Shown here: in pieces, positions 14,286 to 44,538 of the stretch
How positions within the stretch are numbered: the stretch's first letter is position 1
Layout: every line of letters begins with the position of its first letter
Assembly: GCA_051294905.1 (NCBI GenBank)
Contig: CM119371.1
Location: forward strand, 36,830,001-36,894,000
DNA length: 64,000 nucleotides
Origin: Botryllus schlosseri
Taxonomy: Eukaryota
Direction: 5' to 3'
The notes under the pieces: generated by a model
The model's input: only the letters and a program-made list of their open reading frames with translations
Told to the model about the DNA's origin: nothing
Databases searched by the model: none
Position numbers and translations under genes: made by a program

Positions 14286-14929
14286 CGCTAACTTTCAGAA
14301 TTGTTAAGTATAGTACTCGCACTTTGTGAGAATACCCAAGTAGCTTCTTTGCCTACATGCACCAAATACTCTCAAGTCCTTATGATATTGGAGTACATCA
14401 ACTTCATGATAGCTAGAGTATTGAACAGAAATAGACCCAGAGTACTAACGTTTTACTTACTCGGAAATGACTACTTCTACCTTATTTTAAAGGATACCTC
14501 GTTCGAAGCGAAATTTATGTGGTTTTGGATAATATCCAAGATGTAGGCTCACTTTGAAGGGTACTTCCTAAAACTCAAATATTGCGCAAAAGTACAATTA
14601 GGGATCTAAAAGTAACTAATATAGATGGGTATTTTCGTAGATTACTTACCCTCTACTCAAGAGGTTTTTCAGGTGGAACTACCTACTTTTATGACTGTGT
14701 ATGTCAAAGTAGTTTGAGCTTACGTTTATATCACCTTGACAAGTGACATTATCACACATGAAAATGATATTATCGCGTAATACCAGAAGTTAACACACGT
14801 CAATGTGTTTCGGAAGTCACTAGAAATTGGTTACTAAGAAAAGTATTTGTGTACACAATAGCGGAGAGAATATTTAAAATGTAGTAAGCAGGCCGATGGG
14901 TATTCATTGAGTTGTATAAGCATAAAAAA

Positions 14930-14999
14930 CATTCCCGCGCGCGTCTTAGGATTAGGTGGTAGGGTTAGGCAGGGTTGGGTTTAGGAGCGCGCGGGAATG
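14930..14999. other. Symmetry-axis hairpin of E1: 13-bp GC stem plus 44-nt telomere-like G-rich loop
   Basis: CATTCCCGCGCGC / GTCTTAGGATTAGGTGGTAGGGTTAGGCAGGGTTGGGTTTAGGA / GCGCGCGGGAATG. Confidence 0.85.
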
Positions 15000-17580: not shown

Positions 17581-17910
17581 TCAACGATAATTTTCGTCTG
17601 TCTCTTGCGTCACGTCAACCAGTATGTACGAGAACGGTTTTCGAGTTGCCTTTTTATAAGCCTCCGTAAGGAATCCGGCTTTATCCGGGAACATTTGACG
17701 TGAAAGAAAACTGATTTGACTCGCATCGCGGGGATTTTTAAATATCACGATATAGCTCGCGCTCAAGGTCATATCCCGAAAGCCTTGACCCCTATAGAAC
17801 AAATTTTGACATATGAACACGACACTGATCTTTGCGTGATGGCTGTATCGAGTGAATAGATCTCTGGCCTCTTTCGCTTCCGTGATGTAACTTTCCTCAT
17901 TTGTATGCAT
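17581..17910 (-). pseudogene. Mirror copy of the Polinton packaging ATPase fragment
   Basis: Translation is identical to 8292-8621, in the right arm of E1. Confidence 0.85.
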
Positions 17911-20074
17911 AGCCTACGCGAAATTGGTTACCGAATTTTTTTGATTAGTTTAGATTCCGAATTTTATTTAAAACTGAAACTGTTAAGTACTACTAAAGTG
18001 TTATAAAATGTGAAAAAGTGTACAAGTAGTTATTAGTATGTCATGAATAAGTAGTTAAAATTCATACGATTTTTCTTGTTGCGTTCCAGGATAAAATGTA
18101 ATTTTTCGCTCTTTTCTTTATTTTTTAATTTTTAATAAAATAAGTATTCATTTTACAAAAAACGTCGACTTTTGAAAATGGAAAATGCGTGAGCTCGACT
18201 AACTTTTTACGTAGTTCGAAATCGCTACTTCTATGCATTAATTCAAAGTATTTGTCAGTCATCGTAACACCGCTCATATTGCGCGCTATCTATTTATTTC
18301 ACAGATAACGAATTACTCCTACTTTTATCAGAGGATACTTTTCTAGGATTTGCCTACTAACAGTACTTAGTTTAGATTAATAAAAGTATAGTGATTGAAA
18401 ATAGATCACTGGAATATAGTTTACAGAAAACTCCACAATTCTATGTGACGTCCTTGCATACCAACAACCTCCGAACTATTCGCCGCCTCATAAACACTTG
18501 AGTAGGCCTACATCTGATGCGTGAGGGGAAAACATAGGTAAATTTTCATATGCATTTAGTTTCCAACTCTGAAAGCAAGCTTAGTCTATGATCATTCGCG
18601 TACCATTAGTATTCATTTTACAAAAACGTCGTGTAAAGGTAAAGTACTTGTACATTTCGGAGTACTCAAGTATCAGTTTTGTCAGCTTATTATATGCTCA
18701 GTATATTATACGTCACAAATTGTGGAGCATTTATGTGGGTGCTCTAGGGTGCTCTTCATTGAGTGTTCGTGTTGGGTGATAAGTTTAATTTGCAAAATTA
18801 GCGCGTTCAAATCAGGCCTGTCGCCAACATAGTGATGTCGCATTAGCCCTAAATACACATAATAGAATATAAAGGAAAAGTATCACCTAACGTATAATGA
18901 ATGTTATCTATTTCTCGGAAGCAAGTTATTATCAAAACATAGTGGTCAAAATTATCGCAGAGCAATATCGATTTGCGTAAATTCCGTTATGCGTCTGACT
19001 ACGTTACTAGGGATCATGTAGTTAGTTAAGGAATTACGAGTCCTATCTTCCCAATCGCTATGGAACAACATCAAAATCATCACAAAGCAATATCGACAAA
19101 ATCTGCTTACTTTTATAACTTTATATTTTGTGAAGTAGAGAGTAGTTTAAGGTTATGTTTGTCTAACCTTAGCGAGTGCTATTGTCACACTCGATCACCA
19201 TCTTCAAATCATGGCTATCTCAATGATGTTGACTAAATTTTCGGCTTCAGAACGTGTTAATTAGACCTAATCGTTTTAACGCTGGGGTTCGCGTACAGGC
19301 ATCGATAGAGTTTGTATAAATAAAGCCCTGCGAATCGCACGCCTACGGCTATAGTTCGTTCGATTATTTTCACCTTGGGATTCGCGTATATGCTACTAAG
19401 CTGTTACGACTTTAGAAAATTCTACAAGACTATTCGGAACGCGCACATGCGAGTGATTTGTTTCCGTAGCTCCGAACTGGAGAATCGCTTGCCTGCGTCT
19501 AATGAAAATAAGTCGTAAAATGGGGAGGCTGCAGAGAGACAGTAACTTGTATACATAAAATCGAGTTTAAAAATATGGACGGATGAGTTATCTCTGAGCA
19601 ATAGAGTAATATAACCGCCTATAGTTTAGTGGGGTATTGGTATAATGTATATCCAAACAATCGTTGCAGACTCTGAATGTTACCTAGGTCCTTATCACAA
19701 AAAATCATTCATCAGAAGCGTAGGGGCTCATATTATCAAGTCGCAGCGCTCAAAATCGCATTTTATATTAAGTAATTAGTGATGATGTGTAGAATTTTGA
19801 TATTAATAATATTATCCGGAGAATATAGCCTTACATAGACATCATAGTTTTCGCATTTATGTATAATCTGAATAGGAATTTAAATACATAGTCCTAAATA
19901 CACATAATAGAAAATCTGTCGATTCTAGCCAAGGTAAGTTTTGACGCAGCAATTGTGGATGATGTAACAAGGGGTGTCCTATAGGTGCGGCAATGGGCGT
20001 CATATAGGCGTGGCAATTAGGGCGACGTGGCGAAATTTGATTGGCCTGCACGAAAAAAGGATGACAACACTACT

Positions 20075-20142
20075 CACGCACCCGTCGTTAGGGGATTTGC
20101 AGTATCCGTGATTATTTGCCTCGCAATTCGGTACGGCGGACA
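20075..20142 (-). CDS. Exon 2, 5' part (VSAVPNCEANNHGYCKSPNDGCV), interrupted by E1
   Basis: Acceptor TTTTTTCAG|TG. The frame continues up to the TSD (TGCGTG = Cys-Val). Confidence 0.8.
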
Positions 20143-24183: not shown

Positions 24184-25788
24184 TTATATGTCTCTTCCGG
24201 TCAATATAACATAGTCGATTAACGGTTGAATCGTTCTCTGATTAACTATCAGAGAAAATACTGTATAAGGTGTTCGATACTTCTGTACGTCTCTGCTCAG
24301 ATGGGTCCGTTCTACGGAATATTTATTACAGAATAGCACGAAATGGTCCACCGTTTCCGGCACACCACATTCCGCACAGACTCCACTTTCGTGTAAGCCG
24401 AGTTTGTGCAGGTGTTTGTTTAGCCTGCAATGACCGGTGTACAATCGGGTCAAGATCGAATTCTCTCTTCGGTTTCGATTGGTTTGCTTATGAAAAGTTA
24501 CTTGGAGCGACTCCATCTCCTGATTGCCGAGTTCGAGTATTTGTTGAGTGGTATTACGTCGTATGTCCCTGTAATATTCTGCTACGATGGCTTGACATTC
24601 TTTTGCTGTAAGAGGGACCATGTTTGGATGATCGACGGGTTCCCTGGATGCTTCCTTTGCCAAATTATCGGCGGTTTCGTTATATGCAAGTCCTTTGTGT
24701 GCGGGAATCCAAACAAACGTGACTGTTGATCCTCTTGCCGATAAATGGATGGTTTGTAAGTGAATGTCCCTGATTAAGTCATTGTCTTTAGATCGGTTGT
24801 CGATTGCTTTTATTGAGCTACTACTGTCCGAGAAAATTGCTAATTGTATGTTAGGTTCGCAATTGTTACAAGCCCATGCTAGACTGTCTCTGATAGCCGT
24901 CAGCTCCGCCGTAAATATACTCACAAGTCTGTTCAGTGATTTTTTATACGAAAATTCAAAACTGGGTACATAGAATGCTGATCCACATCCTGCGTCAGTT
25001 TTCGAGCCGTCTGTATAAATAGCACAATAGTTTTTGTATCGCTCTACTATTACTTCCCTGCATTCGATATTCATAGCTTGGGGATTATTGAGTTCGCGTA
25101 ATTTCATTTCTAGATCAAGGTCACAAGTGCTATTTACCGACGTCCAAGGGGGAATTTGTGAATATTGTATGCATTCTATTGCTATGTCCTTTAAGCACCC
25201 AACCTTTGAAACCATATTAAAGGTTTCAAATTGTATAGAGTCTGGAAATATTTCGTGCCAAGAGTCCTGGACGATCGAAGTACAGGGGTGATCTCTTTGT
25301 GATCTTATGATACACCGGTAATTTGCACACGCCTGTTTGTAACGCATTTCTACGGGCGGCTCGTTGCAAAGAAATTGTAGTGCATGTATCGGAGTGCTCC
25401 TCATTGCTCCGCTGCAGAGTCTCAACGCGTTATTTTGTAGCGTCTGAAGTCCTTTGGAGACATATTTCGGTGAAGCGAAATATGCTTCGATGCCATATTC
25501 GATGATCGAGCGTATCAGTGCCCTATACAGTACTAACATGCATTCTTTGGAGGCCCCCCATGTAGTTCCACTCAGACAACGAAGAATATTCATCCTGGAT
25601 GTGCATTTTTTGACCACAGATTGTAGGTGTGGTTTATATGAGAGTCTCGAATCAAATATTATGCCGAGATATGTGTATTCTTTTAGGAAGGGTATGGGAT
25701 CACTTCCAGACAAAATCTCAAGGGAAGGTAACTTGCGACGTCTCGTGAACAAAATGGCGGCAGATTTTGCGCTATTTATCTTCATGCC
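24184..25788 (-). pseudogene. LINE ORF2 C-terminal part: RT thumb, RNase H and Zn knuckle
   Basis: Motifs YLGIIFD, IYTDGSK, FTAELTAI, SDSSS, WIPAHKGLAYNETADNLAK and CAECGVPETVDHFVLFC. Same frame as the RT across the single stop (WCLK*GMKIN). Confidence 0.95.
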
Positions 25789-26813
25789 TCATTTCAAGCA
25801 CCAATTTGTGATCGCCGTGAGAGTCGTCTGTGTATCATTGCGTACCGTGTCGATGTTTAGCCCGGACTCGTAAAAACAAATGTCATCAGCGTATATGTTA
25901 AGTTTTGAGGCGATTTTATCAGGAAGGTCGTTCATCATCACAGCGAATAATAATGGCGAGAGAATACTTCCCTGGGCAATTCCATTGTCAGTATGGAAGA
26001 TTTCGGACAGGGTTGTACCCACGCGCACTCGAAATGTTCTCTGTTTCAGGAATGAGTGTATCCATCGTATTGCATTTCCTGAGATACCCATTTTGCGCAA
26101 TTTAAATAAGATAGCTCCTTGCCACGCCATGTCGTAGGCTTTCTCTAAATCGAGGAAGACCGATATTGTGTATCTCTTATTTGCGATAGCTTTGTAGACT
26201 TCGTCGTGTAGCGATAAGATGCAGTCTCGGGTACCGCGTCCTTTTCGAAACCCACTCTGTGCAGGGTGGAGGAGATTGTTACTTTCCAGATACCAAGTCA
26301 ACCGATTGCTAATCATACGCTCAAAGATTTTACATAAATCGCTTGTGAGCGAGATTGGTCTGTAACTGCTAACTTCGGAAGCGGGTTTTGCTTTTTTGTG
26401 AATCGGAACTACCACTGCGTGCTTCCAAGAAGGAGGGCATATGCCATCGCTCCAGGACTTGTTGATTATTCGGAGATATTCAATTGCGGTTCGTTGGGAC
26501 ACGTTTCGCATCATCTGGTGGCATATTCCATCATGGCCGGGCGACGCACCTTTTCTTTGACGGATTACCGTCATCAGTTCGTCCATTGTATACGGCGCGT
26601 TTATTCCAGTGTTCGACCCTATTTCCTGTAACAGCGGGGTCAGCTTATCAGCTTCAAACAAGTTGCGTCTAGTTTGCTCTACTTGTCCAAGGTTTTGGTT
26701 CCCACATACCGATGCGAAGTGCTTTCCAAGTGCGTTTGCTATCTGTTTTTCGTCAGTGAAAACGAGATTGTCGCTTTTCAGCGCAGTAATCACATTCCAG
26801 GATTGACTACCCC
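25789..26813 (-). pseudogene. LINE ORF2 middle part: reverse transcriptase
   Basis: Motifs SPGHDG, YRPISLTS, QSGFR, FLDLEKAYD, GIAQGSILSP and YADD. In frame with the EN part once E2 is removed. Ends at a premature TGA (likely TGG). Confidence 0.95.
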
Positions 26814-28290
26814 AGTAGTGAGGGTTGATCAAATTGGTACGCACCAATCACAGAACGCCACGTCATCCTAATTGCCACGCCTATATGACGCCCATTGTCA
26901 CGCCTACAGGATGCCCATTGCCACGTCACCTACCACTGCCACATCGTGTGTATTTATGAGCAAATTTCATTGTTTTGTGAATTTCAATACCGGTTTTCCA
27001 TGTATATTTAGCAATATGTATTGAATAACTTGAAATGTATCATCACTAATTAATTAATATAAAATGCGATTTTAAGCGCTGCGACTTGAAAATATTAATA
27101 TAATAACTTACTTTTTTGGATATAAATAACATTCAGATTACACATAAATTTCTAAAACTATGACGTCAATAGAATACTATATTTGCCAGATATTCACAGA
27201 TAACACTCATCAACGTTGAACTAGGCGCGGGGTTCTATGATGATATATCAAAATTCTACACATCATCACTAATTAATTAATTCATATAAAATGCGATTTT
27301 GAGCGCAGACAGATCGCGGTTTCGATTGCCGAGGTCTCCGCATTTCATGACCTTATATGAGCGCACACTACAACTGAATTCATTCCAATACCTGCAAATT
27401 TACTTTGCATGTCGAGTATAAGGATAATTTAATCAGCACTAAACGCCAACGGACTAGCCGTAGGCGCACAATTCTCGGCGTTACAATTAAACAAACTTTT
27501 CGCGGCAGGTACGCGATTCCCGACGTTATAATGATAGTGACAAATTAGCCGCATGAAAGCGAGTCTAATGAATATAACGACAGACAACAAGTTAGTTGAA
27601 AAGTAAAACTAATCGTGACCGATGCAAGACGACGTAAAACAGCGCTTTCGCTCGATTCTTGTAGTGACCACATTTCATACGATTCAGTCCTTTTCATGTC
27701 ACTAGAATAAGGGTGATTAAACCAACAGTGAAACGCCGCCGACGTCTTATAACGTAATAATGTAAGCTGCGTCGGGTGCTGCTATAATGTTAGGAGCGAA
27801 TATAGTAGAAAGTCCACGTCTGGACACCTATAAGCAAGTGTGCATACTACCGTAGTAAACGCATAACAGAATTCATGCAAAAGTCTATATTGCTTTGTGA
27901 TGATTTTGATGTTGTTCCATACCGATTGGGAAGATAGGACTCCTAATTTCCTTATCCCGGAACGTAGCAAGAAAAATCGTATAAATTTTGTAAAGTAGAT
28001 AGAAAACTACACTATTCCGATGCAGTAAAGACTCTTACATGCTGGATTTTGTGCAGTATATACTAATTTTACATTGCGGAGTATTCCATAAACGTTAATC
28101 CAGTGATCCTCCTTCTATTTTCAATCACGATCCGCTTATTATTCTAGGCTTCGAACCCCACACCCAGTACATTTTATGGGGATTAATATTTTTAGATTAA
28201 ATATAGCGTATCGAGACTTCGTGAAACTTACTCGGAAATAGTTATTTCTACCCTAATTTAATAGATTTCTCAGATATCGTAGCAACGGAA

Positions 28291-28372
28291 CTGGCTTCAG
28301 CGAGCGGTTAAGGCGTTGGACTTAAGTTTCAATGAACAAGTGTTCACATAGGTTCGAATCCCACACCCACTA
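28291..28372 (+). tRNA. Degenerate tRNA-Leu(UAA)-like sequence inside E2
   Basis: CGAGCGGTTAAGGCG D-arm, TTGGA-CTTAAGT-TTCAA anticodon arm, long variable arm GAACA..TGTTC and GGTTCGAATCC T-arm. The acceptor stem does not pair, so it is probably a pseudogene. Confidence 0.7.
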
Positions 28373-29696
28373 CGTTTACGAGAATTAATATTTTTAGATT
28401 CAAATTTAGCGTATTGAGTACTTTTTCTGCCTTTTTCAGCGCATTAGAGACGTTTACACTATTGATTTCATGAGCTTTACTTAAGTTTTATAAATTAACG
28501 TAAAAGTAGTCATTTCCGAGTAAGTAAAACGTTCGTATTGTAGGTTCATTTCTGCTTAATACTATAATTATCATGGAGTTGAAGCAGTCCAATATCAAAA
28601 ACACCCGAAAGTATTTGTTGCATATAGCTAAAATCCTAATTGAGTACTCTGAAGAAGTACAAGTAGCACAGTTTGTGGTATTTCTATGACATCGAAATTT
28701 AGCTAACCAGAACTTATACTTGAGTAGTCCGAAATGTACAAGTACTTTACCTTTACACGACGTTTCTGTAAAATGAATACTGATTTTATTAAAAATAAAA
28801 AAGCACGAAAAATTACATTTTATCCCAAACCATCAGAATACTAAAGTAGCTTATCGCGTATATGGAGCTAATACTAAAGTGTTTATGATTTCAGTTCGCT
28901 TCAACTTCATGACATTTTCAGTATTAAACAGAAGTATAGGCCTAGAATGCTAACTTTCTTCGTAAATTGCTACTTCTACCTTAATTTAACGGATTTATCT
29001 GAGATCATTGCTTTACTTAATCTCTCCAAAATGTGCATTATACTAGTACGTCACCATCGAATCCCTCTGGCTATAACTACCCGATAGTATAATTGAGCCA
29101 AATACTCGAGTACTAATTTTAAAGTAGCTTAGGTATCTAAATGAACCGACGGTCAGTAAACCATTTCGAAGTGCAAGTACAGGAATATCATAGTTCTTGA
29201 ACCGTGCTCAATGCTCAATAGACCATTTTTGCTATTTTTCATCGCCATAAGTCATTCTGGACCGCGTAAACGCATTGTACGTTATAGATGAAACTTATGC
29301 AAATCCCCGGAACGCAACAAGAAAAATCGTATGAATTTGTAAACTACTTATTCATGACATAATAATAATTCTACTTGTACACATTTTCACATTTTATAAC
29401 ACTTTAAGTAGTACTTGAAAGTTTTGTCAAGTTAACAGGTTAAAAACTTATACTTGAGCACTACGAAATGTACAAGTACTTTACCTTTACACGACGTTTT
29501 GTAAAATGAATACTAATTAAAAAATAAAAAATAAAAAAGAGCGAAAAATTACATGTTATCCCGGAACGCAACAAGAAAAATCGTAGGAATTTGTAAACTA
29601 CTTATTCGGTAAACTACTCTTTCCTTCACAAAACAAAGTTACAAAAGTAAGCAGATTTATATGAAAACCCGTTAAATAGAAGTAAAAGTAATAACA

Positions 29697-30245
29697 ATGC
29701 ATCATACCAAATTTGATCGCAATTTCATGATGCAATACCTTTAAAACTAACGCAGTTCTCTATACACTTTTGCGTAAATCTGTGTTTCGCTAGCGTAGCA
29801 CGTACCTATACATAGTAAGCTTCAATAACGGAATTACCATGCTAATAATCAAATCCCCCACCCTGAAACTCGGTACGCGGTTGTAGGACATTATGAAAAT
29901 ACAACATACCAAATTTCATCAGACATTTCATGATGTAACACCTTTAAAACCAACGCAGTTCTATACCGACTTTTGGCTAAATCTGTTATCCATAGCGCAG
30001 CACGTACCTATACATAGTCAACTTTAAAACGGAATTACCATGTTAATAATCGGCTCCCCACCTCGAAACTCGGTACGCAGTTGTAAGACATTATGACAAT
30101 GTACCATGTCAAATTTTGTTACGCATTTCATGATTGAACAACTTGAAAACTAACGCAGTTCTATACCGACATTTGCGTGAAACTGTTTTGCGGGAGCTTA
30201 GCGCATACCTATGCGTAGTCAACTTTAATGACGGAATTACAGATG
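29697..30245 (+). repeat. ~200-bp unit array in E2, mirrored at ~38596-39144
   Basis: Near-identical to 9855-10400. Confidence 0.85.
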
Positions 30246-32719
30246 TAATTAGGTTTCAACACTTTTACAACGATTCTTCTTGCTTCCTATAACATCACAC
30301 TCGAAGCCCTCGTTATTAGGCTATGATCTCAGCCTGAGCTATGTCTTGAAGCCTACGGACAATTTCATGATGCAATACCTTTAAAACTAACGCAGTTCTC
30401 TACACACTGATTAATTCTCCCTATGTTAATTTACCATAAGACAGACAATTTGACTCCTAAAGTCCGAAATACTTGTTCGCTTGAGCTAAGCCGCAGCGCC
30501 TGGAGTGGAATTTTATAGTTCTTGTAAAAAGTTGTTTATACACAATATATGTTTAAGGTAAGTCCTACGCATTCATGATTTCGTCCGAGTTTGTATTTTA
30601 GTAATATATACTAATACCGCGTTTGTAACTTGTGCAAGTAGGCCTACAGGAATATCATAGGTAAAGTCTCTGTCTTGCATTTAGTTGCCGGCTCTGAAAG
30701 CAAGCAAAGTTTGTGGTATTTGCGCAACATCGAAATTTGTACACTTCACGCGGGGCCTACGATACTTACGGCCTAATATGGCACATTACACTTGCTGGAT
30801 ATAAGAGGCCGACACTCCCAACCAGACATCACGACTGACTCAATGATTGCTTGCGATCTCACTTCTCGATACCAGACGCCTCGCCATACAAGTCTAATAA
30901 AGTATTATAACAGACAAAATTAGTTCTTTCAGATGAAACAACCCAATTAAGAGCCAAGTGACAGCGTCGCAATGTATTTAATCGTTCAGGTAGACTTGAA
31001 TCGTGATCCGGATCTCGTAACATAGTAAAATCGAGGTATGTAGTTTAATTACTCACTCACTACTCTATATGTTGGTGGTGGTCATACCCTGCAAACTTTT
31101 TTGCTGCGAACGTAGTGTTTCACCTTACATCAGTTGGTTCAATGTATGTACCGGGTTGTGAAAACTGTCGCTGTTTTGACTATGTGTCACAATCAATACT
31201 AAATACGAGAATTCGTTACTCGTCGAAACGCCGCAGTCAGACATCGTTAACAGCGATTCCGTGTATGGCAATCTTGAGTTCAATTGCGGTTTTGTGATGT
31301 TAACCAAGCGGCTGTGTTTCTGCGGTGTGAAGACTGAATTCGTGTTGTTTCCCTGCAAGAGTGCGATGTCTATTTCACACCTAGAGCAATTATAAAACGC
31401 ATCTTCGAAACTTTTGGTCTAGTTCATCCGCTTGCATTTCGAAACGGACCATCACGACAAGACTCTAACCCACCACATCCGAGGTTTCAGTTGATCATAT
31501 CGAAGAATATCATGTCCATCCGTGTTACCACCCACAGATTTCGCCATCCTCACACGGTAGTGCTAAGACACAGACAAGATGCGGTGGTGGAAATATTGAA
31601 AATGAGAAAGCAGACCTTGGTGTCATTTGATTTGGATTTTACACCCGATGAACCCACCATTCGAACTGCGCATTGGGATGAGGATTCTATCATTGATGTC
31701 GAGGGAAAGGAGATGTACAGATTTGTTGGTGTCGTGAATATTCAACGAAAGTCGGGGTATATGCTTGTGCATGGTTCGCGTATTTGACTGTGAAGATATC
31801 GCTATACATAACGTGCTGTTCACCGTATCGATAGCACCAACGAATATCCGTGAAAGGGTTGTAATCTCGGTGAAATAGTGTGCGACACATTTTTCCACAA
31901 TTCGAATGCATGTCGGTTCATACTAAGACCATGTTACGGTCAAATATGTGTGTTTTTCTGTCTCCAAGTCAGCTACCCCTCACATTGAATGTACAGAGTC
32001 GGTGCATGTATGAGACTTCAGAACATGAATTTGTAATCCATGATGCTTGTAATGCCGGCCATGATGTTATCCATGATGTATGTAATGTCACACACCTCGT
32101 TTACGCGAATACTTGGTATCTATGAACAATCGTGAAGTATACTGGATGTGTAATGTCTTGTTATTTTCATGGAAACACGAGGGTGTAACATGTTTGAATA
32201 TTGTTCATTGGTTTGTCGATTCAGAGTTAAAATACGTATTGACCAATAAAGAGTGACACAATATAGTAAACATGTGTGAGAAAACTCACAAGTAACCCGG
32301 ATTTGTTAGCGCGACGGGGACATAAATTCAACCATTATCCGTGTACCAAGCAGTTACCAAAGTCATGGAGGTTGCTAATTTCAACATATTGACTCTGTGG
32401 GAGGCTAAAGCACGAACCGGGACACACACAGACACACACACCAGGACACACAATATCCGTCGATTTCCAAAGCATACATTTCGATATACAAGAGCATATT
32501 GTTATTTCATGTGGTTAACCGTTGATATAGATGCGATGCGATCGACGCGGGTATACTCTGAAACCGGTTGTCCGTTTATATGAGAAAAGATGCTGTGAAG
32601 GACTTTAAAAAGCGGCAATTGAGCATAGTTGTGTCGAGTTACCGAATGATTTTTTCCTTACATCAAAACAACTAGAATGTGTAACTACATTAAACACGTA
32701 TCTAAATGAGCTCCAGGGC

Positions 32720-33735
32720 TTTGTGATTATGCAGCATACCAAATTGCATCACACATTTACATTTCATGATGGAATAACTTTAAAACTAACGCAGTTCTAT
32801 AGCAACTTTTGCCTACATCTGTTTCGCTAGCGTGTACATGTACATATACATAGTCAGCTTTAATACCAGAATTACCATGCTAATATGTGAATCCTCACCT
32901 TGAAACTTGGTACGTAGTTGTAGGACATTGTGATTATGCAGCATACGAAATTTCCTCACGCATTTCATAATGGAACAACTTTAAAACTAACGCGGCTCTA
33001 CATCGACATTTTGCGTACATCTGTTTTGTGAGGGGCGTATAGTACGTACCCAACTTTAATAACGGAATTACCATGCTTAACATTGAATCCCAACTCTAAA
33101 CTTGATACGTAGTTGTAGGAGATTATGGCAATGCACCATGCTAGATTTCATCATCACACATCTAATGATGGAACACCTTTGAAACTATCGCAGTCGAATA
33201 CCGACTTTTACGCATATCTGCTTTTCGTGAACACAGCATATACCCATACATAGTCAATTTTAATACCAGAATTAGTATGCTAAACATCAAATTCTCGCCT
33301 TGAACGTTGGTACGCAGTTGTAGGACATAATAAGAATGAACCATACCAAATTTCGTCACACATTTCATGATGTAACACCTTTAAAACCAACGCAGTTCTA
33401 TACAGACTTTTGGTTAAGTCTGTTTTTCCGTAGCGTAGCACGTACCTATGCATAGTCAACTTTAATAACGGAATTACCATGTTAATAATCGACTCCCAAC
33501 CTTGAAACTCGCTACACCGTTGTAAGACATTATGAAAATGCACCATGTCAAATTTTGTTACGCATTTCATGATTGAACAACTTTAAAACTAATCCAGTTC
33601 CATGCCGACTTTTGCGGGGGCGTAGCACGTACCTATGCATACTCAACTTTAATAACGGAATTACCGAGCTTAACATTGAATGCGCAACTTGAAGATCGGT
33701 TCACAGGTGTAGGACATTATGACAATGGAACATAC
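32720..33735 (+). repeat. ~200-bp unit array in E2 (~5 copies), mirrored at ~35106-36121
   Basis: Near-identical to 13255-14285. Confidence 0.85.
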
Positions 33736-34387
33736 CACTGCGCTAACTTTCAGAATTGTTAAGTATAGTACTCGCACTTTGTGAGAATACCCAAGTAGGT
33801 TTTTTGCCTACATGCACCAAATACTCTCAAGTCCTTATGATATTGGAGTACATCAACTTCATGATAGCTAGAGTATTGAACAGAAATGGACCTAGAGTAC
33901 TAACGTTTTACTTACTCGGAAATGACTACTTCTACCTTATTTTAAAGGATACCTCGTTCGAAGCGAAATTTATGTGGTTTTGGATAATATCCAAGATGTT
34001 GGCTCGCTTTGAAGGGTACTTCCTAAAACTCAAATATTGCGCAAAAGTACAATTAGGGATCTAAAAGTAACTAATATAGATGGTTATTTCCGTAGATAAC
34101 TTACCCTCTACTCAAGAGGTTTTTCAGGTGGAACTACCTACTTTTAGGACTGTGTATGTCAAAGTAGTTTGAGCTTACGTTTATATCACCTTGACAAGTG
34201 ACATTATCAGACATGAAAATGATATTATCACGTAATACCAGAAGTTAACACACGTCAATGTGTTTCGTAATTCAAGAGAAATTGGTTACTAAGAGAAGTA
34301 TATTCTTGTGTACACAATAGCGGAGAGAATATTTAAAATGTAGTAAGCAGGCCGATGGGTATTCATTGAGTTGTATAAGCATAAAAA

Positions 34388-34452
34388 CATTCCCGCGCGC
34401 TTCTAAACCCTGCCTAACCCTACCACCTAATCCTAAGACGCACGCGGGAATG
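34388..34452. other. Symmetry axis of E2: same GC stem plus 39-nt telomere-like loop (C-rich strand on +)
   Basis: Loop 34401-34439 TTCTAAACCCTGCCTAACCCTACCACCTAATCCTAAGAC is the reverse complement of the E1 loop minus one GGGTT, with one substitution. Confidence 0.9.
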
Positions 34453-37400
34453 TTTTTATGCTTATACAACTCAATGAATACCCATCGGCCTGCTTACTAC
34501 ATTTTAAATATTCTCTCCGCTATTGTGTACACAAGAATATACTTCTCTTAGTAACCAATTTCTCTTGAATTCCGAAACACATTGACGTGTGTTAACTTCT
34601 GGTATTACGTGATAATATCATTTTCATGTCTGATAATGTCACTTGTCAAGGTGATATAAACGTAAGCTCAAACTACTTTGACATACACAGTCCTAAAAGT
34701 AGGTAGTTCCACCTGAAAAACCTCTTGAGTAGAGGGTAAGTTATCTACGGAAATAACCATCTATATTAGTTACTTTTAGATCCCTAATTGTACTTTTGCG
34801 CAATATTTGAGTTTTAGGAAGTACCCTTCAAAGCGAGCCAACATCTTGGATATTATCCAAAACCACATAAATTTCGCTTCGAACGAGGTATCCTTTAAAA
34901 TAAGGTAGAAGTAGTCATTTCCGAGTAAGTAAAACGTTAGTACTCTAGGTCCATTTCTGTTCAATACTCTAGCTATCATGAAGTTGATGTACTCCAATAT
35001 CATAAGGACTTGAGAGTATTTGGTGCATGTAGGCAAAAAAACCTACTTGGGTATTCTCACAAAGTGCGAGTACTATACTTAACAATTCTGAAAGTTAGCG
35101 CAGTGGTATGTTCCATTGTCATAATGTCCTACACCTGTGAACCGATCTTCAAGTTGCTCATTCAATGTTAAGCTCGGTAATTCCGTTATTAAAGTTGAGT
35201 ATGCATAGGTACGTGCTACGCCCCCGCAAAAGTCGGCATGGAACTGGATTAGTTTTAAAGTTGTTCAATCATGAAATGCGTAACAAAATTTGACATGGTG
35301 CATTTTCATAATGTCTTACAACGGTGTAGCGAGTTTCAAGGTTGGGAGTCGATTATTAACATGGTAATTCCGTTATTAAAGTTGACTATGCATAGGTACG
35401 TGCTACGCTACGGAAAAACAGACTTAACCAAAAGTCTGTATAGAACTGCGTTGGTTTTAAAGGTGTTACATCATGAAATGTGTGACGAAATTTGGTATGG
35501 TTCATTCTTATTATGTCCTACAACTGCGTACCAACGTTCAAGGCGAGAATTTGATGTTTAGCATACTAATTCTGGTATTAAAATTGACTATGTATGGGTA
35601 TATGCTGTGTTCACGAAAAGCAGATATGCGTAAAAGTCGGTATTCGACTGCGATAGTTTCAAAGGTGTTCCATCATTAGATGTGTGATGATGAAATCTAG
35701 CATGGTGCATTGCCATAATCTCCTACAACTACGTATCAAGTTTAGAGTTGGGATTCAATGTTAAGCATGGTAATTCCGTTATTAAAGTTGGGTACGTACT
35801 ATACGCCCCTCACAAAACAGATGTACGCAAAATGTCGATGTAGAGCCGCGTTAGTTTTAAAGTTGTTCCATTATGAAATGCGTGAGGAAATTTCGTATGC
35901 TGCATAATCACAATGTCCTACAACTACGTACCAAGTTTCAAGGTGAGGATTCACATATTAGCATGGTAATTCTGGTATTAAAGCTGACTATGTATATGTA
36001 CATGTACACGCTAGCGAAACAGATGTAGGCAAAAGTTGCTATAGAACTGCGTTAGTTTTAAAGTTATTCCATCATGAAATGTAAATGTGTGATGCAATTT
36101 GGTATGCTGCATAATCACAAAGCCCTGGAGCTCATTTAGATACGTGCTTAATGTAGTTACACATTCTAGTTGTTTTGATGTAAGGAAAAAATCATTCGGT
36201 AACTCGACACAACTATGCTCAATTGCCGCTTTTTAAAGTCCTTCACAGCATCTTTTCTCATATAAACGGACAACCGGTTTCAGAGTATACCCGCGTCGAT
36301 CGCATCGCATCTATATCAACGGTTAACCACATGAAATAACAATATGCTCTTGTATATCGAAATGTATGCTTTGGAAATCGACGGATATTGTGTGTCCTGG
36401 TGTGTGTGTCTGTGTGTGTCCCGGTTCGTGCTTTAGCCTCCCACAGAGTCAATATGTTGAAATTAGCAACCTCCATGACTTTGGTAACTGCTTGGTACAC
36501 GGATAATGGTTGAATTTATGTCCCCGTCGCGCTAACAAATCCGGGTTACTTGTGAGTTTTCTCACACATGTTTACTATATTGTGTCACTCTTTATTGGTC
36601 AATACGTATTTCAACTCTGAATCGACAAACCAATGAACAATATTTAAACATGTTACACCCTCGTGTTTCCATGAAAATAACAAGACATTACACATCCAGT
36701 ATACTTCACGATTGTTCATAGATACCAAGTATTCGCGTAAACGAGGTGTGTGACATTACATACATCATGGATAACATCATGGCCGGCATTACAAGCATCA
36801 TGGATTACAAATTCATGTTCTGAAGTCTCATACATGCACCGACTCTGTACATTCAATGTGAGGGGTAGCTGACTTGGAGACAGAAAAACACACATATTTG
36901 ACCGTAACATGGTCTTAGTATGAACCGACATGCATTCGAATTGTGGAAAAATGTGTCGCACACTATTTCACCGAGATTACAACCCTTTCACGGATATTCG
37001 TTGGTGCTATCGATACGGTGAACAGCACGTTATGTATAGCGATATCTTCACAGTCAAATACGCGAACCATGCACAAGCATATACCCCGACTTTCGTTGAA
37101 TATTCACGACACCAACAAATCTGTACATCTCCTTTCCCTCGACATCAATGATAGAATCCTCATCCCAATGCGCAGTTCGAATGGTGGGTTCATCGGGTGT
37201 AAAATCCAAATCAAATGACACCAAGGTCTGCTTTCTCATTTTCAATATTTCCACCACCACATCTTGTCTGTGTCTTAGCACTACCGTGTGAGGATGGCGA
37301 AATCTGTGGGTGGTAACACGGATGGACATGATATTCTTCGATATGATCAACTGAAACCTCGGATGTGGTGGGTTAGAGTCTTGTCGTGATGGTCCGTTTC

Positions 37401-40400
37401 GAAATGCAAGCGGATGAACTAGACCAAAAGTTTCGAAGATGCGTTTTATAATTGCTCTAGGTGTGAAATAGACATCGCACTCTTGCAGGGAAACAACACG
37501 AATTCAGTCTTCACACCGCAGAAACACAGCCGCTTGGTTAACATCACAAAACCGCAATTGAACTCAAGATTGCCATACACGGAATCGCTGTTAACGATGT
37601 CTGACTGCGGCGTTTCGACGAGTAACGAATTCTCGTATTTAGTATTGATTGTGACACATAGTCAAAACAGCGACAGTTTTCACAACCCGGTACATACATT
37701 GAACCAACTGATGTAAGGTGAAACACTACGTTCGCAGCAAAAAAGTTTGCAGGGTATGACCACCACCAACATATAGAGTAGTGAGTGAGTAATTAAACTA
37801 CATACCTCGATTTTACTATGTTACGAGATCCGGATCACGATTCAAGTCTACCTGAACGATTAAATACATTGCGACGCTGTCACTTGGCTCTTAATTGGGT
37901 TGTTTCATCTGAAAGAACTAATTTTGTCTGTTATAATACTTTATTAGACTTGTATGGCGAGGCGTCTGGTATCGAGAAGTGAGATCGCAAGCAATCATTG
38001 AGTCAGTCGTGATGTCTGGTTGGGAGTGTCGGCCTCTTTTATCCAGCAAGTGTAATGTGCCATATTAGGCCGTAAGTATCGTAGGCCCCGCGTGAAGTGT
38101 ACAAATTTCGATGTTGCGCAAATACCACAAACTTTGCTTGCTTTCAGAGCCGGCAACTAAATGCAAGACAGAGACTTTACCTATGATATTCCTGTAGGCC
38201 TACTTGCACAAGTTACAAACGCGGTATTAGTATATATTACTAAAATACAAACTCGGACGAAATCATGAATGCGTAGGACTTACCTTAAACATATATTGTG
38301 TATAAACAACTTTTTACAAGAACTATAAAATTCCACTCCAGGCGCTGCGGCTTAGCTCAAGCGAACAAGTATTTCGGACTTTAGGAGTCAAATTGTCTGT
38401 CTTATGGTAAATTAACATAGGGAGAATTAATCAGTGTGTAGAGAACTGCGTTAGTTTTAAAGGTATTGCATCATGAAATTGTCCGTAGGCTTCAAGACAT
38501 AGCTCAGGCTGAGATCATAGCCTAATAACGAGGGCTTCGAGTGTGATGTTATAGGAAGCAAGAAGAATCGTTGTAAAAGTGTTGAAACCTAATTACATCT
38601 GTAATTCCGTCATTAAAGTTGACTACGCATAGGTATGCGCTAAGCTCCCGCAAAACAGTTTCACGCAAATGTCGGTATAGAACTGCGTTAGTTTTCAAGT
38701 TGTTCAATCATGAAATGCGTAACAAAATTTGACATGGTACATTGTCATAATGTCTTACAACTGCGTACCGAGTTTCGAGGTGGGGAGCCGATTATTAACA
38801 TGGTAATTCCGTTTTAAAGTTGACTATGTATAGGTACGTGCTGCGCTATGGATAACAGATTTAGCCAAAAGTCGGTATAGAACTGCGTTGGTTTTAAAGG
38901 TGTTACATCATGAAATGTCTGATGAAATTTGGTATGTTGTATTTTCATAATGTCCTACAACCGCGTACCGAGTTTCAGGGTGGGGGATTTGATTATTAGC
39001 ATGGTAATTCCGTTATTGAAGCTTACTATGTATAGGTACGTGCTACGCTAGCGAAACACAGATTTACGCAAAAGTGTATAGAGAACTGCGTTAGTTTTAA
39101 AGGTATTGCATCATGAAATTGCGATCAAATTTGGTATGATGCATTGTTATTACTTTTACTTCTATTTAACGGGTTTTCATATAAATCTGCTTACTTTTGT
39201 AACTTTGTTTTGTGAAGGAAAGAGTAGTTTACCGAATAAGTAGTTTACAAATTCCTACGATTTTTCTTGTTGCGTTCCGGGATAACATGTAATTTTTCGC
39301 TCTTTTTTATTTTTTATTTTTTAATTAGTATTCATTTTACAAAACGTCGTGTAAAGGTAAAGTACTTGTACATTTCGTAGTGCTCAAGTATAAGTTTTTA
39401 ACCTGTTAACTTGACAAAACTTTCAAGTACTACTTAAAGTGTTATAAAATGTGAAAATGTGTACAAGTAGAATTATTATTATGTCATGAATAAGTAGTTT
39501 ACAAATTCATACGATTTTTCTTGTTGCGTTCCGGGGATTTGCATAAGTTTCATCTATAACGTACAATGCGTTTACGCGGTCCAGAATGACTTATGGCGAT
39601 GAAAAATAGCAAAAATGGTCTATTGAGCATTGAGCACGGTTCAAGAACTATGATATTCCTGTACTTGCACTTCGAAATGGTTTACTGACCGTCGGTTCAT
39701 TTAGATACCTAAGCTACTTTAAAATTAGTACTCGAGTATTTGGCTCAATTATACTATCGGGTAGTTATAGCCAGAGGGATTCGATGGTGACGTACTAGTA
39801 TAATGCACATTTTGGAGAGATTAAGTAAAGCAATGATCTCAGATAAATCCGTTAAATTAAGGTAGAAGTAGCAATTTACGAAGAAAGTTAGCATTCTAGG
39901 CCTATACTTCTGTTTAATACTGAAAATGTCATGAAGTTGAAGCGAACTGAAATCATAAACACTTTAGTATTAGCTCCATATACGCGATAAGCTACTTTAG
40001 TATTCTGATGGTTTGGGATAAAATGTAATTTTTCGTGCTTTTTTATTTTTAATAAAATCAGTATTCATTTTACAGAAACGTCGTGTAAAGGTAAAGTACT
40101 TGTACATTTCGGACTACTCAAGTATAAGTTCTGGTTAGCTAAATTTCGATGTCATAGAAATACCACAAACTGTGCTACTTGTACTTCTTCAGAGTACTCA
40201 ATTAGGATTTTAGCTATATGCAACAAATACTTTCGGGTGTTTTTGATATTGGACTGCTTCAACTCCATGATAATTATAGTATTAAGCAGAAATGAACCTA
40301 CAATACGAACGTTTTACTTACTCGGAAATGACTACTTTTACGTTAATTTATAAAACTTAAGTAAAGCTCATGAAATCAATAGTGTAAACGTCTCTAATGC

Positions 40401-40468
40401 GCTGAAAAAGGCAGAAAAAGTACTCAATACGCTAAATTTGAATCTAAAAATATTAATTCTCGTAAACG

Positions 40469-40550
40469 TAGTGGGTGTGGGATTCGAACCTATGTGAACA
40501 CTTGTTCATTGAAACTTAAGTCCAACGCCTTAACCGCTCGCTGAAGCCAG
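40469..40550 (-). tRNA. Mirror copy of the tRNA-Leu(UAA)-like sequence
   Basis: Reverse complement of 28291-28372 in the right arm of E2. Confidence 0.7.
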
Positions 40551-42027
40551 TTCCGTTGCTACGATATCTGAGAAATCTATTAAATTAGGGTAGAAATAAC
40601 TATTTCCGAGTAAGTTTCACGAAGTCTCGATACGCTATATTTAATCTAAAAATATTAATCCCCATAAAATGTACTGGGTGTGGGGTTCGAAGCCTAGAAT
40701 AATAAGCGGATCGTGATTGAAAATAGAAGGAGGATCACTGGATTAACGTTTATGGAATACTCCGCAATGTAAAATTAGTATATACTGCACAAAATCCAGC
40801 ATGTAAGAGTCTTTACTGCATCGGAATAGTGTAGTTTTCTATCTACTTTACAAAATTTATACGATTTTTCTTGCTACGTTCCGGGATAAGGAAATTAGGA
40901 GTCCTATCTTCCCAATCGGTATGGAACAACATCAAAATCATCACAAAGCAATATAGACTTTTGCATGAATTCTGTTATGCGTTTACTACGGTAGTATGCA
41001 CACTTGCTTATAGGTGTCCAGACGTGGACTTTCTACTATATTCGCTCCTAACATTATAGCAGCACCCGACGCAGCTTACATTATTACGTTATAAGACGTC
41101 GGCGGCGTTTCACTGTTGGTTTAATCACCCTTATTCTAGTGACATGAAAAGGACTGAATCGTATGAAATGTGGTCACTACAAGAATCGAGCGAAAGCGCT
41201 GTTTTACGTCGTCTTGCATCGGTCACGATTAGTTTTACTTTTCAACTAACTTGTTGTCTGTCGTTATATTCATTAGACTCGCTTTCATGCGGCTAATTTG
41301 TCACTATCATTATAACGTCGGGAATCGCGTACCTGCCGCGAAAAGTTTGTTTAATTGTAACGCCGAGAATTGTGCGCCTACGGCTAGTCCGTTGGCGTTT
41401 AGTGCTGATTAAATTATCCTTATACTCGACATGCAAAGTAAATTTGCAGGTATTGGAATGAATTCAGTTGTAGTGTGCGCTCATATAAGGTCATGAAATG
41501 CGGAGACCTCGGCAATCGAAACCGCGATCTGTCTGCGCTCAAAATCGCATTTTATATGAATTAATTAATTAGTGATGATGTGTAGAATTTTGATATATCA
41601 TCATAGAACCCCGCGCCTAGTTCAACGTTGATGAGTGTTATCTGTGAATATCTGGCAAATATAGTATTCTATTGACGTCATAGTTTTAGAAATTTATGTG
41701 TAATCTGAATGTTATTTATATCCAAAAAAGTAAGTTATTATATTAATATTTTCAAGTCGCAGCGCTTAAAATCGCATTTTATATTAATTAATTAGTGATG
41801 ATACATTTCAAGTTATTCAATACATATTGCTAAATATACATGGAAAACCGGTATTGAAATTCACAAAACAATGAAATTTGCTCATAAATACACACGATGT
41901 GGCAGTGGTAGGTGACGTGGCAATGGGCATCCTGTAGGCGTGACAATGGGCGTCATATAGGCGTGGCAATTAGGATGACGTGGCGTTCTGTGATTGGTGC
42001 GTACCAATTTGATCAACCCTCACTACT

Positions 42028-43120
42028 TACCCCCCATAGCGCGGATAACTCTCCATACCTTCGAGACGCTCGTTGTTCTGTTCAATGAGCTACAGAACGA
42101 TTCCCAGTAGGATTTTTTTACTGTTATGATAGTCTTCTTCGCCATAGCCCGTCGGCGCTTGAAGTTTACCACATCGTCCACTTGGAAGCTCCGTTTCATC
42201 TTAAGAAAGGCTGCGCGTTTGAGACGTACGGCCTTTGCACACTCCGCATTCCACCATGGGACGCTTGGTTTGTTCGAAGGTTTTGTTGGGGGAATAGTAG
42301 CTTTCGCGGCTTGAGAGAGAGCTTGAGTGAATTCCTCTGGCGATAGAGGCTCTGTTTCGTCTTTAATTTTCGATTGTATATGGTTTTCACTCGTCTGTCT
42401 GAATTTTTTCCAGTTCGCATTCCGCAAAGACCAGGTTTCAAGATGCACATCGTTTACATGAATTTTGTGATCAATTCGACTCCAAATCACGTAGTGATCG
42501 CTTCCAAAAAGATTTTCGGTGACGTGGGTAGTGCATCTATTTGCGATACCGTTTGAAGTGATCGTTAAATCCAACAGTGACGCCCGGCCGCGGTTGGGGA
42601 ACGACAAATCGATTCTAGTTGGAACTGTGGTGTTCAGCACTACCATGTCTTTGCTATCGATAATATGCCCCATGTGTCTTCCACAGGTATTCATCGCGCT
42701 ACTACCCCATAAAGGATGATGCGCATTGAAATCTCCCAGAATTACGAATTTCGCTGTGCATCTACTGAAACATCGTTGCAGCAGTGACCTTGAGAGTTTT
42801 TTGTTAGGAGGGATGTACACGTTCATTATTGTAAGGCCTTGAATTGATATGATCTGGGACTCGATTGGCTGTACACTTTCTGTTGACATTTCTAAAAATG
42901 GGATTCGCGACTTGATAAACATGCATAGGCCACCGCCGTGGATATTTCTGTCCTTCCTCAGAATAACATAACCCGGTATTTTTGGAGAGTATTTTGGTAC
43001 CAAATGCGTCTCTTGTAATGCAATAATATCCGGCTTTCCATCCAAATCTAGAATGTACTTTTTGAGTTCGTCCAGTTTCCTATAGATACCTCGGCAATTC
43101 CACTGCATTATTTTTAACAT
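42028..43120 (-). pseudogene. LINE ORF2 N-terminal part: AP-like endonuclease
   Basis: Motifs MQWNCRG, IALQETHL, GDFNAHHPLWGS, LDLT, GSDH and PWWN. Truncated by E2. Confidence 0.95.
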
Positions 43121-44538
43121 GGTGAATTCTCTTGGTATGACATGCTCAAATCCATGACCGGCTCAAAATCTGCTTGCTCGTTGTGTGTTGTTGTGAGTTC
43201 TCGTTGTGATGAAATCGATTGATTTGACGTGGTTTCTGTGTTCGACGCGGCTGCATTGGACATCGGTCGATTTGGCATGCTTTTTGTGTTTGACGCGGCT
43301 TTATTTGATGTCGATCGATTTGGGGTGTTTTCTGTAAATGACGAAGCTGTATTGGGTAAAGACATACCGAGAAAAGATTCTGCGGACTTGGCAACAATGG
43401 ATGCAACGTTTATTTCTGTACCTTCATTCATGCAGATGAATGCACTTTTTATCACGTCTGCTGTAAATTGGAGAAATTCTGTTGTGGCAATGGAGATGTA
43501 GCCAGCACGGTTGTGGTTAGCGGCTATCGGGTTACTGTGTTTTTTGGCGTTGGGAGCAGTGTCAGTCGCGGGTGCATCTCTCCTTGGAGTGATGGCCGTG
43601 GGCATTGTTACTGCGTTGTTTCCTACAGGTGTCGAGTTTTGATGATGAAGGATAATTGCAGCGGGGCGCGGCAGAGTCGGAAAATCATCATATGATTGTG
43701 TGTTTGGCGGCATTTGTGTTAAAGTGTACTGTTGTCTGGCTTCCCAGTAACCTATTCCCTGTTGTGTCATTATCGAGTTAATTTTCCCTTCCTGTCGGTA
43801 ACGCGCACAACCGCCGTAACCAGCAGAGTGTTTCTCACCACAGTTCACACATCTTGGCTCTTTGTCGCAATTCTCGTATTTGTGCTGTTCTCCACATCTG
43901 GTGCAGCGTTGTGTGCTACGGCAGTATTTAGACTTGTGCCCAAACCGATTGCAGTTATAACATCTAGTTGGCGGTGGGTTATAAACTCGCGTGCGAAATT
44001 GCATGAAACCGATTTTTACCACCGTTGGTAATATGGTAGAGGCGAAGCATAACAGAACTGATCGACTCGGCTTAGACTCTCCGTTTGACTTATAAGAAAA
44101 CCGTCGCACAAATGTGACTTTGTGCATTGCTAATTCAGTTTGGATCTCTTCGTTGGTTAGATCCAAGGGAACATCTCCTATAACTCCCCGCGTCTCGGGT
44201 GTTTTCGTTTTGTACAGCTCGGCTCGTACCTCTATTGGTTTATCAGTAGTACCAAGGTTAGTGCACGTCAGCAGTTTCGAGACCTGATCGTAGCTCGCGC
44301 ATAATACGCACAAGTCGCCGGAAGGAAGTACTTTGATATCTTTTTAGGCACCGCCTAACACCTTATACAGCTGTCTATTGATGACCAATGGATTGAAAGA
44401 TCGTAGTTGCCTAGTTATACCCTTGACGATAACTGAAATACTAGTTTGTACCGAGTTGCTTGGAGCTGATTCTTTAGAAGCAGGTCCATTGAGCTGGTCT
44501 TCTGCGGAGCGCTTATGCGCTCCTTTTTTACTTGACAT
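43114..44538 (-). pseudogene. LINE ORF1 gag-like nucleic-acid-binding protein with one in-frame stop
   Basis: ORFs 44344-44538 and 43114-44313 are in the same frame (LGGA*KDIKVLPSGDLCV). Knuckles are CYNCNRFGHKSKYC, CTRCGEQHKYENC and CVNCGEKHSAGYGGC. Overlaps the ORF2 ATG by 7 nt. Confidence 0.9.

Follow-up and report, generated by a model that had tools for sequence, protein, structure and literature searches.

Polintons, or Mavericks, are described (PMC4196379) as elements of 15–20 kb with a target site duplication (TSD) of 6 bp, terminal inverted repeats (TIRs) of 100–1,000 bp, and AG...CT ends that include a terminal tandem repeat of 1–3 nt. Butterfly polintons are reported (10.1101/2025.02.07.637071) to have TIRs of approximately 2 kb that contain core genes (hexon, adenain), and derivatives lacking polB to have stayed active. 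Snap-back or copy-back defective viral genomes are portrayed in PMC13506859 as highly symmetric, non-coding, dependent on a helper and retaining their replication ends. This study concerns an element, E2, in a 64,000-nt stretch of Botryllus schlosseri DNA (GenBank assembly GCA_051294905.1, contig CM119371.1, positions 36,830,001–36,894,000; here called the window), together with a related element, E1, in the same window and their family elsewhere in the genome. E2 proves to be genuine, a Polinton offshoot without genes that inserted recently, and over a hundred mirror-image elements of this family are present in the genome. Views on how Polintons replicate and on whether they form virions in animals have so far been based on gene content, neither process having been observed, and the lockstep in which the two halves of these elements have changed hints at how they are copied.

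E2 (26814–42027, assigned to neither strand) was delimited by an inverted-repeat scan and by alignment of its arms as a near-perfect palindromic, non-autonomous Polinton-type element of 15,214 bp. An earlier note, made from the sequence alone, had described two arms of approximately 7.59 kb with about ten differences, a 39-nt loop, AGTAGT/ACTACT ends and a 6-bp TSD, and all of these were recovered. The left arm (26814–34400, plus strand, 7,587 nt) was aligned with the reverse complement of its mirror image, the right arm (34440–42027, minus strand, 7,588 nt), and the alignment shows 8 substitutions and a single 1-nt indel between them. The scan returned two repeat pairs, 26814–33805 with 35036–42027 (6,992 nt) and 33800–34404 with 34436–35040, and inverted repeats make up 99.7 % of the element. 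The unpaired centre (34401–34439, plus strand) is 39 nt long if the stem stops at 34400/34440 and 31 nt (34405–34435) as set by the repeat tool. AGTAGT is found at 26814–26819 and ACTACT at 42022–42027, and copies of the TSD, TACCCC, lie immediately outside at 26808–26813 and 42028–42033 (plus strand).

The insertion site is the second open reading frame (ORF2) of a long interspersed element (LINE) on the minus strand. The endonuclease frame (42023–43162) stops at the right junction of E2 and the reverse transcriptase (RT) frame (25789–26847) begins at the left junction. By arithmetic on the frame coordinates, the two halves are in phase once 15,220 nt, equal to E2 and one copy of the TSD, are removed, which indicates a clean insertion.

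When the first 487 bp of E2 were used as a genome query, 880 first-look candidates were found, and the best 40, which were scored, were 95–100 % identical to the query and mostly formed plus/minus pairs 11–34 kb apart. A subterminal 36-mer in the E2 version had 109 and 112 matches (221) with up to 2 mismatches, and a second version had 101 and 102 (203) with up to 1 mismatch, while the reversed-pattern control had 0 in each case. The places of 100 of the 221 and 100 of the 203 matches were listed, and all figures for pairs rest on these. Ten further copies, labelled by their pairs of ends (for example L033/34, L037/38, L041/42, L043/44 and L049/50), were fetched. Their inverted arms are 3.2–7.6 kb long and 98.9–99.96 % identical, and eight of the ten have perfect 6-bp TSDs that differ from one another (seven found by scan, one after a 3-nt shift read from the ends). 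Searches with the terminus and the centre thus bore out the proposal in the earlier note that E2 belongs to a family inserted at independent sites. The right end of L033/34 does not have ACTACT, and the two ends of L041/42 differ from each other.

The first 650–1,100 bp are common to all copies, and the terminal region of approximately 707 bp in E2 (26814–27520, plus strand; mirror copy at 41321–42027) is 97–98 % identical to all fetched members. Further inward the copies are mosaics of modules, the order of which varies but is always mirrored in both arms. The central hairpin of E2 (341 bp around the loop) was found at full length, with 93–97 % identity and in one preferred orientation, in 40 of the 40 scored places, E2 included, out of 646 candidates, and E1 and 8 of the 10 fetched copies contain half of it; this half was not found in two autonomous loci. 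The corresponding module is at 34120–34720 in E2, on neither strand in particular. A centre module that most members have in common, in a single orientation, indicates that the palindromic build is inherited rather than made anew at each locus.

Elements with coding capacity are present in the same genome. A search with the pPolB protein found 261 candidates, and the 78 that were scored fell into four identity classes with many open frames of 1,288–1,310 aa. At least five places were found where pairs of the same subterminal 36-mer (up to 1 mismatch), 17.1–18.4 kb apart, enclose open pPolB frames of 1,294 aa. One autonomous copy was fetched (C1:23798357–23816022; 17,666 bp, TSD CAAAGA, AGTAGT ends, TIR of 140 bp), and besides its polymerase frame of 1,294 aa it encodes an A32-like ATPase (PF04665), an integrase that combines rve with a chromodomain, and an ORF with a BIR domain. 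The polymerase frame had no Pfam match at E up to 0.001 and only a zinc-finger match in a sequence search of the PDB, and it is identified as pPolB because its homologues carry PF03175 (E down to 1e-297). A PF03175 profile search of the genome gave no match, and since the control genomes were equally silent this result is uninformative.

A second pPolB-bearing element, of 34.2 kb (C1:20425964–20460221), has the TSD GGCAGT and an open polymerase frame of 1,310 aa. Positions 25–707 of E2 are 97 % identical to its TIR of 857–861 bp. By match coordinates, it appears to consist of a palindromic module with two opposed Bcl-2 ORFs followed by a core of approximately 17.8 kb, all within one pair of TIRs. 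L049/50, a non-coding palindrome of 15.0 kb, matches the left end of this element over 2,198 bp with 100 % identity. The match coordinates also place the end of the inner arm of the composite at the TIR boundary, as though a head-to-head pair of TIRs had been lost.

The ends of the coding and palindromic elements were then compared. All 10 aligned ends, an autonomous one among them, show no variation in AGTAGT, CCAATC, GCCACGTC, TAATTGCCACGCCTA and iterated ATTGCCAC-type motifs, and both pPolB-bearing elements have 6-bp TSDs. The assignment of these termini to Polintons in the earlier note therefore holds, and an autonomous relative in the same genome, as it had anticipated, is provided by the 17.1–18.4-kb elements that enclose pPolB. 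In the comparison that it suggested, over the first 100 bp or so, the autonomous element has the 36-mer and the end blocks of E2, but its first 130 bp are only approximately 71 % identical to those of E2. The first Polinton found (C11, L052/L053) was rejected as a helper because it has no end sequence in common with E2. E1 and E2 have the 6-bp TSD, the AG...CT ends with a short terminal repeat of 1–3 nt, and the TIRs of Polintons generally, the TIRs being far longer than the 100–1,000 bp published; they encode neither the pPolB nor the retrovirus-like integrase of an autonomous Polinton, and their ends are also found on an autonomous element in this genome. This supports the view that E1 and E2 are non-autonomous Polinton/Maverick derivatives with autonomous relatives alongside them.

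E1 (6086–20074, neither strand) is 13,989 bp long and has AGTAGT/ACTACT ends like E2, with its own TSD, CACGCA (6080–6085 and 20075–20080). The inverted-repeat scan found TIRs of 4.5 kb at 6086–10604 (plus strand) and 15598–20074 (minus strand) that are 99.7 % identical and make up 65 % of the element. The earlier note had given E1 the same architecture as E2, and this stands for the ends and the separate TSD but not for full palindromy, as the 5-kb centre (10605–15597) is not palindromic apart from a single inner inverted pair of 607 bp. A tblastn search with the ORFs of the two autonomous loci found a 101-aa remnant of the A32-like packaging ATPase in E1 only and nothing in E2. It is at 8316–8618 (plus strand) in the left arm, with 99 % amino acid identity over 101 aa and 97 % nucleotide identity over 303 bp to the gene in the 17,666-bp autonomous element, and a mirror copy with the same match is at 17584–17886 (minus strand) in the right arm. 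The right arm of E1 is thus a mirror copy of the left one, as opposed to a Polinton's right end. In E2, no Polinton remnant was found beyond the ends, but it contains modules that are 99 % identical to modules of E1.

Compared with described elements, E1 and E2 resemble Polintons in the 6-bp TSD, the AG...CT ends with AGT present twice, the TIRs, and the end blocks that they have in common with the coding elements residing in the same genome. They differ in having no pPolB, integrase, capsid or protease gene and in that inverted repeats make up 65–99.7 % of the element, as opposed to TIRs of 140 bp or approximately 860 bp in the coding elements here. The butterfly polintons are similar in that genes lie in long TIRs and are thus present twice per insertion, and in having polB-less derivatives that look mobile; in the present family the arms reach 7.6 kb, lack core genes and carry a Bcl-2-family ORF at most, and the palindrome takes in the entire element. 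The likeness to snap-back genomes lies in a palindrome without coding capacity that has kept its ends and, judging from the ATPase fragment, in both arms of E1 being derived from the same side. The snap-back genomes are transient in infected cells, whereas the elements here are integrated and inherited, with more than 100 germline copies and TSDs.

Two further groups invite comparison. Incomplete adenovirus genomes with long inverted repeats are comparable in the same respects as the snap-back forms. Foldback (FB) transposons also have very long inverted repeats, which may extend over nearly the whole element, and tandem subrepeats in their arms, as in the arrays of approximately 200 bp in E2. 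FB transposons have their own ends, their own transposase and a TSD of a length other than 6 bp, and E2 falls outside them, as its ends are those of pPolB-bearing elements and its TSD is 6 bp. A full-text literature search found nothing on near-total palindromic gene-less Polintons, on arms evolving in lockstep or on Bcl-2 cargo, Repbase and Dfam lying outside this comparison. E2 is a non-autonomous Polinton derivative of unusual build, apparently undescribed in the literature searched.

The two arms were examined for changes acquired since copies diverged. A global MAFFT alignment of arms from four palindromes was misleading owing to the mosaic subfamilies, and pairwise tests on like copies were used instead. 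The sister copies L037/38 and L043/44 have the same arms, centre and orientation but different TSDs. In the 7.6 kb compared, they are distinguished by 60 substitution sites and 24 gap columns, all of which are changed in both arms of a copy; no shared site is specific to one arm, and there are 20 singleton substitutions, approximately 10 per copy. Over 3.4 kb of shared segments, E2 and L033/34 differ at 23 both-arm substitution sites, with none specific to an arm and 1 singleton. In the terminal 677 bp, the mate arm is the nearest relative for 19 of 24 arms, and the other five mates rank second or third with at most 1 difference from the arm. Of the 4 pairs that have scores for both arms and a stop codon in the Bcl-2 ORF of one arm or both, 3 show stop codons recurring in the two arms. 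Changes in both arms, with none specific to one, indicate that the arms are re-equalised as the lineage propagates. Mutations, including indels, that arise between the common ancestor and insertion end up in both arms, and after insertion the arms drift slowly, by approximately 0.1 % in E2.

The best explanation, and in our judgement the probable one, is that E2 is a gene-less Polinton derivative mobilised in trans whose arms are equalised during replication. In the published Polinton model (PMC4196379), a single-stranded extrachromosomal copy takes a racket-like form by pairing of the TIRs, which the protein-primed polymerase then fills in, slide-back priming being the role of the short terminal repeat. 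E2 would keep only what acts in cis, namely the AGTAGT repeat, the CCAATC, GCCACGTC, TAATTGCCACGCCTA and iterated ATTGCCAC blocks, approximately 700 bp of Polinton TIR, and a near-full length. The protein-primed polymerase and the rve integrase of autonomous Polintons would copy and insert it in trans, with the integrase leaving the 6-bp duplication. The mirror build is an inherited trait of the family, most members of which have the centre module in common. With TIRs that reach the centre, the racket intermediate would become one long hairpin. The strand displaced in protein-primed replication may fold into this hairpin, as an extreme racket or panhandle, and mismatches would be corrected in its stem; alternatively, the polymerase may switch to the nascent strand on reaching the central hairpin and copy back. 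Either step would equalise the arms in each round, and such a hairpin or copy-back step is the most likely cause of equalisation. A snap-back origin like that of defective-interfering genomes is plausible, and is indirectly supported by the mirroring of the ATPase fragment and by the way in which the arms keep in step. The structure, TSDs, copy number, ends in common with pPolB elements, mirrored ATPase remnant and both-arm differences were observed; mobilisation in trans, replication through a hairpin or by copy-back, and any packaging are inferences.

The strongest competing explanation, which we consider unlikely, accepts that the elements are Polinton-derived and mobile but has their symmetry kept by intrachromosomal gene conversion between the arms of master copies, with no replication intermediate. 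Long near-identical inverted repeats are good substrates for conversion, as is the case for other large genomic palindromes, and the both-arm differences show only that equalisation occurs somewhere along the lineage. However, inserted copies drift, as seen from the arm identities of 98.9–99.96 % and the approximately 10 singletons per copy in L037/38 and L043/44. Whole modules and indels are also symmetric (the 24 gap columns and the mosaic arms). The two ends of a copy share a variant of positions 7–30 (26820–26843 in E2), although these differ strongly between copies, with approximately 8 versions in 10 aligned ends; copying of one end from the other in replication would be expected to give this result.

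It is much less probable that each palindrome is an independent de novo snap-back of an autonomous Polinton that integrated once and never propagated as a palindrome. The same ATPase fragment mirrored in both arms of E1, the 100 % identity over 2.2 kb between L049/50 and the left end of a pPolB-bearing element, and the variation in detail of the centres among subfamilies would all be consistent with such events. Against this, the E2 centre recurs at full length, with 93–97 % identity and in one orientation, in the best 40 of 646 candidates, L037/38 and L043/44 have the same arms, centre and orientation with different TSDs, and E2 and L033/34 have both centre and ends in common. Centres and arms that are shared at sites with different TSDs indicate that the palindromes themselves have multiplied, and the palindromic centre is a common inherited module and not a fresh snap-back in each copy. 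An assembly artefact (a foldback chimeric read or collapsed arms) is highly improbable: foldback chimeras do occur in long-read data, and E2 was seen in the assembly rather than in spanning long reads, but it lies between matching 6-bp TSDs inside an otherwise continuous LINE ORF, 9 differences are retained between its arms, the same build with its own TSDs is found at several loci on other contigs, and matches to the Bcl-2 ORF occur in plus/minus pairs genome-wide. Equally little credence is due to another superfamily with long inverted repeats (Foldback-like, or a Ginger rve transposon) having Polinton-like ends by chance, for although a 6-bp TSD and AG...CT ends are not unique to Polintons and E2 has no remnant of a Polinton gene, the same end blocks bound elements with pPolB, the A32-like ATPase and the rve integrase, and E1 has both a Polinton ATPase fragment (97 % identical) and internal modules in common with E2 (99 % identical).

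Several points weigh against mobilisation in trans with equalisation during replication. The evidence consists of integrated copies, and an extrachromosomal linear or hairpin form has not been observed. E2 is known from the assembly, the reads mapped being contigs and short RNA reads on a relative and not on E2. Chromosomal gene conversion between the arms could yield the same both-arm pattern, and read-based polishing of the assembly could erase true differences between arms, though singletons survive. Mismatch repair alone does not readily explain the symmetry of modules on the kilobase scale. The autonomous element with the 36-mer has a TIR of only 140 bp, in addition to the approximately 71 % identity of its first 130 bp to E2. 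The only pPolB element with the 700-bp end of E2 is the unusual 34-kb composite, and as this itself contains a palindromic module, it may be either the helper or the one helped. The pPolB and motif figures rest on 78 of 261 candidates scored and on 100 of 221 and 100 of 203 matches listed.

The coding content of the family was examined next. The earlier note had called these elements gene-less, and this holds for E1 and E2, in which none of the 44 frames of at least 60 aa, including those in the left arm of E2, matched a Pfam family above the cut-off, but not for the family as a whole. A single sub-threshold match to Cas_Csn2 (17.5 bits) in the E1 and E2 frames was judged to be due to chance, and no Rfam family was found in 6000–42100. 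A 149-aa frame in E2 (31338–31784) was rejected as a gene, as it matched no Pfam family and its Atlas model had a pLDDT of 0.42 and no feature match. Four of the ten fetched relatives (L037/38, L041/42, L043/44 and L049/50) have an open Bcl-2-family ORF of 183 or 220 aa in each arm, of which no trace was found in the window, so that E1 and E2 are without it. The ORFs of L037/38 and L049/50 are at L037:6325–6984 (plus strand), L038:1113–1772 (minus), L049:3607–4155 (plus) and L050:3600–4148 (minus), with Pfam scores against PF00452 of 78.4 and 78.7 bits (cut-off 31.4) and against PF06861 (BALF1) of 28 bits.

The Bcl-2 ORF had 419 candidate matches in the genome; 150 were scored, 138 of them without a stop by table count, and most lie in plus/minus pairs. 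Between two subfamilies, a single pair gave a dN/dS of 0.33 (dS 0.156, 173 codons). The nearest proteins in a large database are at most 33 % identical (9 matches). The frame stops just past GGW and is followed by GT, at what we take to be the conserved intron site of the Bcl-2 gene family. When raw reads from one RNA run were mapped to the relative L037, 297 reads were placed from 22.2 M records, which make up approximately 3 % of the run, with low depth on both strands. The highest internal bin is just 3′ of the Bcl-2 ORF, and no splice joint was found in this mapping, which is too thin to call expression. Contig runs labelled 'RNA?' also cover non-coding parts of L037 and may be DNA.

The BIR (inhibitor-of-apoptosis, IAP) domain ORF of the autonomous Polinton lies near its left end (L055:1015–1647, minus strand) and is a second gene of the anti-apoptosis type in this group of elements. 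Large DNA viruses encode homologues of Bcl-2 and IAP, for example BALF1 of herpesvirus and the baculovirus IAP. The family is comparable in that members carry a Bcl-2-family ORF and the autonomous element a BIR ORF, and differs in that the carrier is an endogenous, transposon-like element and that the gene is present in both arms of a non-autonomous derivative. The presence of Bcl-2-family and BIR genes suggests that these elements handle host cell death in the manner of large DNA viruses.

The lengths of the elements are not evenly spread. Among the matches listed, 72 motif pairs have no scored polymerase match; 22 of these are 15–16 kb apart and 31 are 14–16 kb apart, with a median of 15.4 kb. 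The five ordinary polymerase-bearing pairs among the matches listed span 17.1–18.4 kb, an autonomous element being approximately 17.6 kb. Copies with different interiors fall in the same size band (E2, 15.2 kb; L037/38, 15.75 kb; L049/50, 15.0 kb). A mode at 15–16 kb would fit a length requirement such as packaging, or it could instead reflect a few prolific subfamilies. We offer only tentatively the combined reading that the palindromes are helper-dependent satellites that use the replication and packaging route of their helpers, contain filler that brings them to capsid size, bear the footprint of hairpin or copy-back replication and carry functional anti-apoptotic Bcl-2 cargo. If true, this would give the first sequence-level evidence for the way in which Polintons multiply in an animal and for the physical form that they take in doing so. 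The family can serve as a natural read-out, in which both-arm substitutions bear on the replication intermediate, lengths on packaging and end blocks on the minimal cis sequences. Structures of this kind tend to be fragile, so that over a hundred 15-kb palindromes whose spacers measure a few tens of bases are also surprising in terms of genome stability.

Further features of E2 and its relatives were recorded. Subterminal direct repeats of 23 bp with a ATTGCCACGCC... motif (26871–26925, plus strand, 2.4 copies) are candidate protein-binding sites. The conserved CCAAT at 31–35 is reminiscent of the NFI half-site, which lies about as far from the ends of adenovirus genomes. Two tandem arrays in the E2 arm are non-coding filler, one of approximately 200 bp (29696–30240, 2.7 copies) and one of approximately 202 bp (32759–33616, 4.3 copies), both on the plus strand. 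The minus strand of the E2 centre (34405–34435), a centre kept in many copies, contains degenerate telomere-like words of the TTAGG, TTAGGG and TTTAGGG types. The terminal versions of E1 and E2 differ, and their internal modules are 99 % identical (11927–12802 and 37585–38434, and other pairs); this points to recombination or template switching between co-replicating subfamilies.

One copy contains an off-centre inner palindrome (L039:2240–4816, minus strand, and L040:3–1928, plus strand) with an RVT_1 RT ORF in each arm, so that a retroelement sequence is mirrored inside a Polinton-type element. A 31-mer of the end had 0 matches in a scan of IMG/VR. Approximately half of the sampled 31-mers of E2 are present in sequencing runs under four other organism labels, which indicates close relatives of the family beyond the source organism. 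No RNA run was listed among those that contain these 31-mers.

The LINE interrupted by E2 is divided into a part with the RT and the downstream region of ORF2 (24184–26813, minus strand) and an upstream part with a CCHC ORF1 and the endonuclease region of ORF2 (42034–44343, minus strand). With its CCHC ORF1 and an ORF2 for endonuclease, RT and RNase H, it appears to be intact apart from the E2 insertion, which suggests that this LINE was recently active.

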